DNA of 58,549 bases, counting the filler, from Sluysia triapertura (lineage: Eukaryota): NCBI GenBank assembly GCA_046118255.1. It is 4 parts of 4 records of this genome, joined end to end, with 100 filler letters (N's around TTAATTAATTAA, not from the genome) between each part and the next. Parts side by side here need not be neighbours in the genome. Positions count along the whole stretch, not along the records: positions 19,211 to 32,561 come from JBJNIA010044794.1; 3 more parts are not named here. One strand, 5' to 3'. The notes under the pieces are model-generated. The model saw only the letters and a program-made list of their open reading frames with translations. It was not told the DNA's origin and did no database searches. This document shows, one piece after another, positions 19,211 through 20,868 of this stretch (positions within the stretch are counted from its first letter, which is position 1; every line of letters starts with the position of its first letter). The position numbers and the translations under genes are program-made.

Positions 19211-20868
19211 TATTAATCCCGGAAACGCCAGTGCTAATATTATCTGTTTTAGTGTGTCTTGTGCAGCTCTTTTAAAATGATCTGGTCTAAATAATAATTC
19301 GAAATTTACTTGTCCATCTTTTCAACTGTTGCTTTATCTATGATTTCGTTTAATATTTTTGATCTTTTTATTGGAAATAGTATTTCCCGCCATGCTGCTT
19401 GAATATCATCATTCGTATATATGCCAGAATTGTGTGTATTTTTGTAGCTAAAAACTTCAGTTTTCCCTTTAGTTCGGTTAATCCTATTATTTCTGGAGTT
19501 TTTACCTGGCTTCTATGTGGTAAGGATATCCATAAATTATCATCAATTCGATATTCCGGTGCCATACCATTAGAACAATGCTTTAACTTTGGTTTGACTT
19601 TTTTATTTGGTATGATTACTCTGGTTACTGGTTTGAGGTATGTTTCTATTTTACCTTATAGTAGAGGCAATTCATTTGTACATTCGGTGGTTGATCTTAA
19701 TTGCACGTATACTTTTTTTTACATTTGTATGTGTATAATAATTCGACCAAAAAACTCCTTCTTCTAATGGTTGTAGTGGTGCGACTAAGTCTGGGTTTGT
19801 AATAGCTATTGCGAATTTTGTGCGTAAATTTTCTTTGTTTAATTACAATCCCGAGTAACCATAATATGATAAATTTTTTCCAGTGAAATCAAACTTACAT
19901 GGTAATAGAAATCGATTAAAATAGGTATTTAATTTTATATTTTTTGTATCAATGCCTTTCATAGCTTGTTGAATTATTTTCTCTGAGAGATAAATTCCTT
20001 GGTAGTTAGTTTCTGTTATTTCTTTTCCACAGCGGATTACTGTCACTTTTAAAATAAAAATCAAACCATATTCTTCTATAAGGCTATTAGTATTGTCGGT
20101 GTTTCGACTTCATCTAATCTTTTTCTTTGTATATGGTCAGTATATTTATTTATTTCTCTAATGGATATTAGTCTTTATCTTGATACATGAATCCTGATAT
20201 TACATTAAATTTTATTTGTTTAAGAAATATTAGTGGACATTGAAATTTGTCCAATTCGTAAATTAGTATTGAGTCTCCAGTGTCTCAACTGATTTGATCA
20301 CTTCATAGTACCATTTTCCATATTAAAACTTTCATTAAATGACTTTTAGACTAACTATGTATGTCTCCTGTGCGACAACATTGTGATATATTTTTTCTTT
20401 ACATTCAATCGTCCCTTGTTCGAATGTTCCATCTATCCATACGTTTCCAGCGGTTCTTATATTATAAATTATCTTTTCATTATTTCCAATTTTTAATTTA
20501 TCTCCCTTTGTTAGACTTATATAACCGGTTTCAAATGCATCTCTGCATTGTTTAGGTAATATCTTAAATGGTTTAAGTACATTAGATAATTCTATACCAG
20601 ATTGCCACTGATCCTTTTACCTTACACTCCCTTATCAGAGTCGTTATTAGATTACCTTCTTGGTAAACACTCATTACCTTAGTATCTTTTATCTGTATTC
20701 TATTTGGCCATTCAGGACAGTCTTCTGTGTCCAATAGTGAAAATGTTCTGCCTATTTGTGGCTGACTACAATCAAATGCCTTTATTGCATTAGTTCTATT
20801 TATCGAATTATGATAAACAACATGCTGTTTGTCGAATTACCTATCCTTGGTATTGCATTATTTAACAT
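19211..20868 (-). pseudogene. env: Chuvirus-type viral fusion glycoprotein (env), with frameshifts and small deletions; C-terminus runs into the gap
   Basis: Manual translation gives in order IKAFDCSQPQIGRTFSLLDTEDC, SVYQ...ECKV, QCRDAFETG, AGNVWIDG, HNVVAQETYIVSL, RCGKEITETNY, NIKLNTYFN, AITNPDL, YTYKCKKVYVQLRSTTECTNELP, YLKPVTRVI and HCSNGMAPEYRIDDNLW. This is the motif series of chuviral glycoproteins (xDC...SLLD..C; C..V.V..R....C..ELPV; P.TRI). Confidence 0.8.

Follow-up and report, generated by a model that had tools for sequence, protein, structure and literature searches.

A decayed and heavily repeated gag-Bcl-2-like-env element, very probably a compact Burro-like Ty3/gypsy retroelement, in Sluysia triapertura

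The minus strand of a 58,549-nucleotide stretch of DNA from Sluysia triapertura (the window) carries a decayed, heavily repeated copy of a gag-Bcl-2-like-env arrangement that very probably belongs to a Ty3/gypsy retroelement, compact and Burro-like, with the gene order GAG-ENV-POL; its pol is predicted to lie in or beyond a scaffold gap that follows env. A layout that runs from Gag through BCL2 and env to protease has already been published for the planarian Burro, and the element described here is likely to be one more member of this known group. The recognizable parts, in the order of their coordinates, are as follows.

17160 to 19110, minus strand: orphan broken frames that, in translation, look like membrane or secreted proteins.
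19111 to 19210, no strand: scaffold gap, filled by a 100-base placeholder (44 N, a 12-base linker, 44 N) of nominal length.
19212 to 20870, minus strand: env, the ectodomain of a gB/chuvirus-type (PF24664), putatively class III glycoprotein, from Pfam, motifs and relatives.
20871 to 21182, minus strand: putative Bcl-2-like domain (BH1/BH2-like half), immediately 5' of env, with Pfam Bcl-2 at E 0.17.
21292 to 21765, minus strand: probable end of a ubiquitin-like domain (assigned via relatives), an acidic stretch and the motif KRKPGRPRK, from alignment to the loci L002 and L001.
21738 to 23259, minus strand: broken, low-complexity, R/N-rich and charged linker, from translation, in which CHNCGRHC near 22730 resembles part of a knuckle.
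23260 to 23775, minus strand: gag capsid region with a frame switch and stops, matching Retrotrans_gag at E 0.0018, with a candidate start ATG near 23739.
24012 to 24611, minus strand: non-coding 5' region of repeated sequence, either a leader or an LTR portion, from contig depth and direct repeats.

For the env, the preliminary description had reported an ordered skeleton of chuviral motifs in frameshifted sequence, and this skeleton is borne out: when the entire window was translated in six frames, each of the eight motif patterns turned up a single time, always on the minus strand and in the expected order. This count tests presence and order rather than chance, the patterns having been derived from the window sequence itself. 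The first half of the env holds AFDC (20779), SLLD..C (20740), C..AFETG (20547) and NVV.Q (20382), and the second half TYFN (19926), V.VQLR....C.NELP (19712), TRVI (19625) and C....P.Y.I...W (19577). That the resemblance is not due to chance follows from the Pfam profile PF24664 (Monjiviricetes_fusion), which is matched collinearly by four of the six env pieces at E 6.7e-6 to 0.022, over profile positions 18-84, 103-179, 409-466 and 464-514; the middle two pieces have no Pfam match. When single-frame read-throughs were scored with stops as X, two of three passed the gathering score of this family (43.5 and 41.8 bits against 27), spanning profile positions 325-463 and 464-544 of 653. Within the aligned blocks, 10 of the 12 cysteines of the relative P0040 are retained in at least one env block of the window.

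With intact relatives as tblastn queries, the env resolves into at least seven reading-frame blocks with internal stops, from 20809 down to the placeholder gap. Stops and frame switches run through the entire copy, which rules out its expression as a whole. The hydrophobic segment that stands clearly ahead of AFDC in the relatives is broken in the window copy. At the other end, a transmembrane helix starts 0-14 residues past the last env-matched residue in six relatives, which implies that the gap cuts the env just before this helix. An identical placeholder recurs at 32562 and at 45267 in the window.

The closest relatives of this env come from retroelements. A phmmer search over 1.84 billion proteins recovered 16 relatives at E 0.001 or better, all 16 with PF24664; nine of them have a retroviral aspartic protease after env, three of the 16 also RT and RNase H; Bcl-2 precedes env in one, and six are env-only fragments of 103-492 aa. 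None of the long relatives is a free viral gene. Identity to the nearest relatives is about 24-58% per block, and the envs of these relatives sit in retroelement polyproteins; among the cluster members are one polyprotein of 4,844 aa, which has ankyrin and C2H2 matches, and one of 3,003 aa, and a single one of the 16 members listed bears a name. Two scans of viral contigs yielded no relative, gag and env matched PDB sequences at chance level only, and a word-based protein search with one env piece returned 23 candidates, none of them scored. Among the relatives, P0045 (HBK71150.1) is a 2,627-aa env-PR-RT-RH-IN polyprotein filed under a Flavobacteriaceae metagenome-assembled genome, where it most likely represents eukaryotic contamination, and P0053, P0042 and L001 are among those with two to six tandem aspartic-protease-like stretches between env and RT; P0053 has ankyrin and C2H2 matches as well.

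The fold could be approached through a relative. An AlphaFold2 model of P0040, built from a 16-row alignment and of modest confidence (pLDDT 67.7, pTM 0.42), matches herpes simplex virus gB in the PDB (Foldseek probability 1.0, E 7.6e-14, TM about 0.3) and, in BFVD, chuvirus-like and xinmovirus G (best E 2.7e-40, 22% identity); the top ten in BFVD include the glycoprotein of Tacheng tick virus 4 along with further ones of chu-like viruses or xinmoviruses, at identities of 16-22%. The model of P0040 thus resembles a class III (gB-like) fold, to which the env of the window is likened through this relative. The chuvirus and xinmovirus glycoproteins and herpesvirus gB have the PF24664 family and the class III fold, as modelled for P0040, in common with this group, but the viral glycoproteins are free viral genes outside any retroelement polyprotein, and the identity of P0040 to the viral glycoproteins listed is at most 22% (BFVD) and 13% (PDB). 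The label "chuvirus-type, class III" is therefore correct at the family level, with retroelement envs as the near kin.

On the other side of the cassette, the gag is, judged by its sequence, of gypsy type. Its Retrotrans_gag score lies under the Pfam gathering score, and the motifs AEANGW (23558), MQKPNETV (23363) and FKNGL (near 23260) are present. Similarity to the gag of relatives is pronounced for P0048 (tblastn E 1.1e-9; none of 500 shuffles as good), for P0050 (again none of 500 shuffles as good) and for L002 (z 15.8); no match was obtained with P0042, P0045 or P0056. Directly 3' of the gag-side ORF comes the env, and no pol separates the two (gag from 23775 to 23260, env from 20870).

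These features bear on the possibility that the window holds a BEL/Pao (Anakin-like) element, which we regard as extremely improbable. The gag resembles that of gypsy-type relatives and has a Retrotrans_gag match, the T.HP.I motif of BEL type was not found, and no pol intervenes between env and the gag-side ORF. Peptidase_A17 and DUF1758/1759, which we take to be marker families of BEL/Pao, are absent from the Pfam matches of 19 homologs and six locus ORFs. What speaks for a BEL/Pao origin is the capture of chuvirus glycoproteins known from mosquito Pao elements (PMC7642597); in the account given there, Anakin of mosquitoes is a BEL/Pao element that uses a chuvirus-related glycoprotein as env, and it differs from the window element in its retroelement superfamily, in its env motifs and in that no Bcl-2-like domain is noted in that account.

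Between gag and env, several parts go beyond the preliminary description, namely, a ubiquitin-like remnant, an AT-hook-like motif and a Bcl-2-like domain. The linker that follows gag has no Pfam match under E 0.03 and nothing significant against L002 (z 1.7 or less), apart from one weak linked tblastx block at 22019-21891; a motif search across the element found no complete CCHC knuckle. The piece at 21292..21765 has no Pfam match by itself and aligns to L002 from residue 685 (z 4.1; 1 of 300 shuffles) and to L001 (z 5.2; 0 of 300 shuffles). In L002, a Pfam ubiquitin match covers residues 650-701 (E 0.0047), so that the first residues of the window piece align with no more than the end of that domain. 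The AT-hook-like KRKPGRPRK lies at about 21417-21391, and a GRP motif 5' of env is also found in P0037, P0039, P0042 and P0053.

The assignment of 20871..21182 as Bcl-2-like is weak and is suggested by position and shared motifs, any such function being putative. The piece ends in WIEYQGGW (20966) and resembles the pre-env regions of P0038 (z 7.7; 0 of 1000 shuffles) and P0040 (z 4.7; 3 of 1000 shuffles) as well as L002 (z 4.3; 1 of 300 shuffles); residues 9-70 of P0040 themselves match Pfam Bcl-2 at E 0.00096. Scores against seven of nine homologs and against L001 were at the shuffle level, and BLASTP of the piece against P0040 missed the similarity. In the PDB, the Bcl-2-related A1 matched at E 0.7, a match lost with a shorter query; chemokine and synaptotagmin matches (E 0.04-0.5) were rejected as chance. 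A single-sequence fold was beta-rich and uninformative (pLDDT 49.9), a word-based protein search with the piece gave 10 candidates, none scored, and an Atlas search gave no usable match.

The same succession of parts appears in a metagenomic locus. Out of at least 593 candidate stretches, a metagenome scan yielded three loci, L001 to L003, and the order in L002 is gag, CCHC, ubiquitin-like domain, GRP motif, Bcl-2-like domain, env, with a gag-to-env spacing of 2,802 nt compared with 2,764 nt in the window; L002 has one stop between ORF1 and env, and its contig ends inside env. L003 holds gag-env-pol within one frame, and L001 holds env-PR-RT-RH-IN in a single frame of 3,426 aa; 3' of this polyprotein, at L001:10617-12104 (plus strand), there is an ORF for an RNase T-type (DEDD-type) exonuclease (E 1.4e-5).

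It is against this collinearity that a separate acquisition has to be weighed: a gypsy element of this particular lineage might have taken up a chuvirus G gene independently, or a fossil chuvirus might have come to lie beside a gag. The viral glycoproteins structurally closest to the P0040 model are chuvirus-like, and PF24664 is a viral family; nonetheless, the best sequence matches are to retroelement polyproteins, gag, linker motifs, the Bcl-2-like domain and env are all collinear with L002, no relative was found in viral contigs, and an ancient origin of the gB-type env is argued in PMC13524379. We consider such an event very unlikely, and it appears most likely that the env was inherited inside the retroelement lineage rather than freshly acquired from a chuvirus. 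Accordingly, of the proposals in the preliminary description, the use of a chuvirus-type glycoprotein as env behind a gag with Ty3/Gypsy signatures agrees with the PF24664 and Retrotrans_gag matches and with the gag motifs, the class III fold anticipated from Foldseek was recovered as matches to gB and chuvirus G for the modelled P0040, and no match to a baculovirus F or a host protein appeared; the independent capture that it suggested finds no support, the nearest relatives being retroelement envs and the linkage of gypsy elements with chuvirus-type env being already in print (PMC13524379, PMC6431247). There is, in short, no evidence here for a new chuvirus capture.

In six relatives (L001, L003, P0039, P0045, P0053 and P0056), env is continued by protease, RT, RNase H and integrase in one long frame, and the RT part of the relatives' alignment has its best PDB match in 4ol8 (E 3.6e-19), presumably the Ty3 RT. 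A pol following env is seen in the relatives alone; the visible sequence of the window element stops at the gap. Pfam detected no pol in the scanned part at 16200-29800, including the interval between gag and env, and tblastn found no pol block of the homologs across the whole window. Beyond the gap, the frames at 17160..19110 comprise a Cys-rich piece, hydrophobic helices at 18704 and 17656, a signal-like start near 18470 and a PPIY motif, with a weak internal repeat (18409-18164 versus 17329-17198; E 0.02 among all pieces). No informative Pfam match was found for this stretch, nor a usable Atlas match for the Cys-rich piece, and none of 15 pieces beyond the gap matches the homolog proteins or L001-L003. 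As an observation in its own right, the minus-strand frames at 17160-19110 resemble tandem type I membrane proteins; a sequence look-up turned up nothing similar. Three origins can be envisaged for these frames: they may represent accessory genes 3' of a pol that is hidden, they may form the end of a derivative that has no pol, or they may come from a different element.

The second of these options would make the element a pol-less, non-autonomous derivative in which gag, the Bcl-2-like domain and env are followed directly by an array of small membrane proteins, and which depends for its copying, in trans, on an autonomous Burro-like element. Its attraction is that no pol was found in the window and that the pieces past the gap share the strand, a similar state of decay and the appearance of membrane proteins; yet the gap is a placeholder of undefined size, and the env ends there before its transmembrane helix, so that some sequence must be missing at this point. 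Moreover, every long relative that reaches far enough continues into protease, the AT skew is about -0.13 to -0.33 in env compared with near 0 in most windows past the gap, and the downstream pieces match no relative. We therefore judge a pol-less derivative to be unlikely. Improbable to the same degree is a pol-less element that exists in very many copies as a satellite of Burro-like elements; it would combine Gag with a Bcl-2-like regulator of cell death, a fusogen of class III and, in the place of pol, an array of type I membrane proteins of novel kind. Such an enveloped element would serve above all to enter cells and to manipulate the host. The compact Burro-like GAG-ENV-POL element, with pol in or beyond the gap, remains our preferred reading.

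That this element belongs to a large family is suggested by the one public run that contains the stretch, X1, which is possibly the source of the window itself; no RNA run was listed for it, which carries no information on expression. Across 19212-25200, 9,707 X1 contigs were placed, 7,621 of them less than 95% alike; by class, 572 are at least 99% identical, 1,514 fall at 95-99%, 3,873 at 90-95% and 3,748 below 90%. Summed contig depth, which by the tool's own warning is not a copy number, is 27,000-236,000 in every bin of 19212-23811, compared with about 20 for single contigs, and drops to 130 in 23812-24011. It rises again in the three bins of the 5' region (27,741, 35,774 and 4,442 across 24012..24611) and is 808 or less in 24612-25011. 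From this depth and the spread of contig identities we infer an old family with very many diverged copies, which span gag, linker, Bcl-2-like domain and env alike. The 5' region contains, at 24284-24567, three direct repeats of 43 nt with the core CGCAACCCGT, and many contig joints fall here. A second copy of the 5' region was found neither among the 25 blastn rows listed (AT-rich noise) nor in the repeat analysis; no LTR pair and no convincing primer-binding site were found in the window, and Rfam had no match in 15500-33000.

Among known elements, the closest parallels are in planarians. Burro and GYPSM1 are giant gypsy-like LTR retroelements of these animals, and Burro, as described in PMC6431247, has Gag, a ubiquitin/SUMO-like motif and BCL2, then an env in frame ahead of protease; this env matches arthropod and fish mononegavirus glycoproteins, and Burro is present in thousands of copies, with decaying fragments that carry stops and frameshifts in Dugesia japonica (PMC6431247). 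The window element has in common with it the order of gag, Bcl-2-like and env parts, with a probable ubiquitin-like end after gag, the very many copies and the state of decay, and the Bcl-2-like motif directly ahead of env, as in Burro, is present on weak but positional evidence. The differences are mainly those of size and cargo: in Burro1-4, as described there, ORF1 has about 4,900-5,100 aa within over 30 kb and two to three CCHC knuckles, whereas the window element measures only about 950 codons from the start of gag to env and has no complete knuckle, and MATH, BIR, RING and ankyrin, all Burro cargo, have no match in the visible part of the window, post-env cargo being out of view. Since the giant size and the cargo are wanting in the visible part, and with pol and LTRs unproven, we file the element as Burro-like rather than under Burro1-4.

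A broader frame is given by PMC13524379, where 114 arthropod gypsy elements with a Chuviridae-like glycoprotein are reported, along with GAG-ENV-POL elements with gB-type env from three further groups (nematodes, bryozoans and flatworms); Schmidtea mediterranea accounts for six of these elements. As reported there, these six (Smed_errantivirus_1-6, with 1-215 copies listed) have a gypsy gag followed by a gB/chuvirus-type env, like the window element, but they are intact and include pol, whereas the window copy is dead and cut by the gap. The patterns VYQE and TNYQGIYLS (TNY.G), chosen post hoc and compared by eye, fit six of six S. mediterranea env rows in the supplement of that paper and none of the three BEL rows from mosquitoes shown there; the main text of the paper does not contain the word Bcl. 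An earlier report noted gypsy fragments near chuvirus glycoproteins with no clear capture (PMC10084718), and PMC13524379 later reports such elements. Troyka was dropped from the comparison, being described as an element without env (PMC12440569).

By analogy, the element would work like Burro or a GAG-ENV-POL errantivirus. The parts would be translated as one polyprotein; an internal hydrophobic signal ahead of env could send the glycoprotein to the ER, with the Gag-Ubl-Bcl-2 part staying in the cytosol, and the parts would be freed by signal peptidase and the element's own protease. A class III trimer might then fuse particles with new cells, resulting in cell-to-cell spread, and the Bcl-2-like domain would conceivably dampen the death (apoptosis) of the host cell. 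For Burro1, an anti-apoptotic role via an IAP region is cited second-hand in PMC13465017, and the expression of BURRO1 is described as being under PIWI control (PMC8532177).

The surrounding DNA is AT-rich and contains other coding traces. A highly divergent ROCK/MRCK-like kinase is encoded on the plus strand at 6802-7995 and 10722-12173, with a coiled-coil exon further on; it is 32-49% identical to its 36 matches (40-46% for the best) and has no close relative, so that, as a guide to the host, it gives no more than a divergent animal ROCK-like kinase. There are also a TMEM126-like open frame at 29817-30506 (minus strand, E 0.01) and an Ig V-set exon at 46195-46530 (plus strand, E 0.0003). A direct repeat of 89 nt (14320-14408 versus 32716-32804, 84% identity, 18.4 kb apart) has no established tie to the element.

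Taken together, these findings extend the GAG-ENV-POL retroelements with Bcl-2 by a lineage that is divergent and compact and that has been amplified heavily and has since decayed. The cassette of ubiquitin-like, AT-hook-like, Bcl-2-like and env parts recurs in relatives with env about 30-45% alike, and given that other relatives are without Bcl-2, Bcl-2-type cargo appears to be patchily distributed. The element would gain in importance if the membrane-protein fragments past the gap belonged to it, or if the family were without pol.
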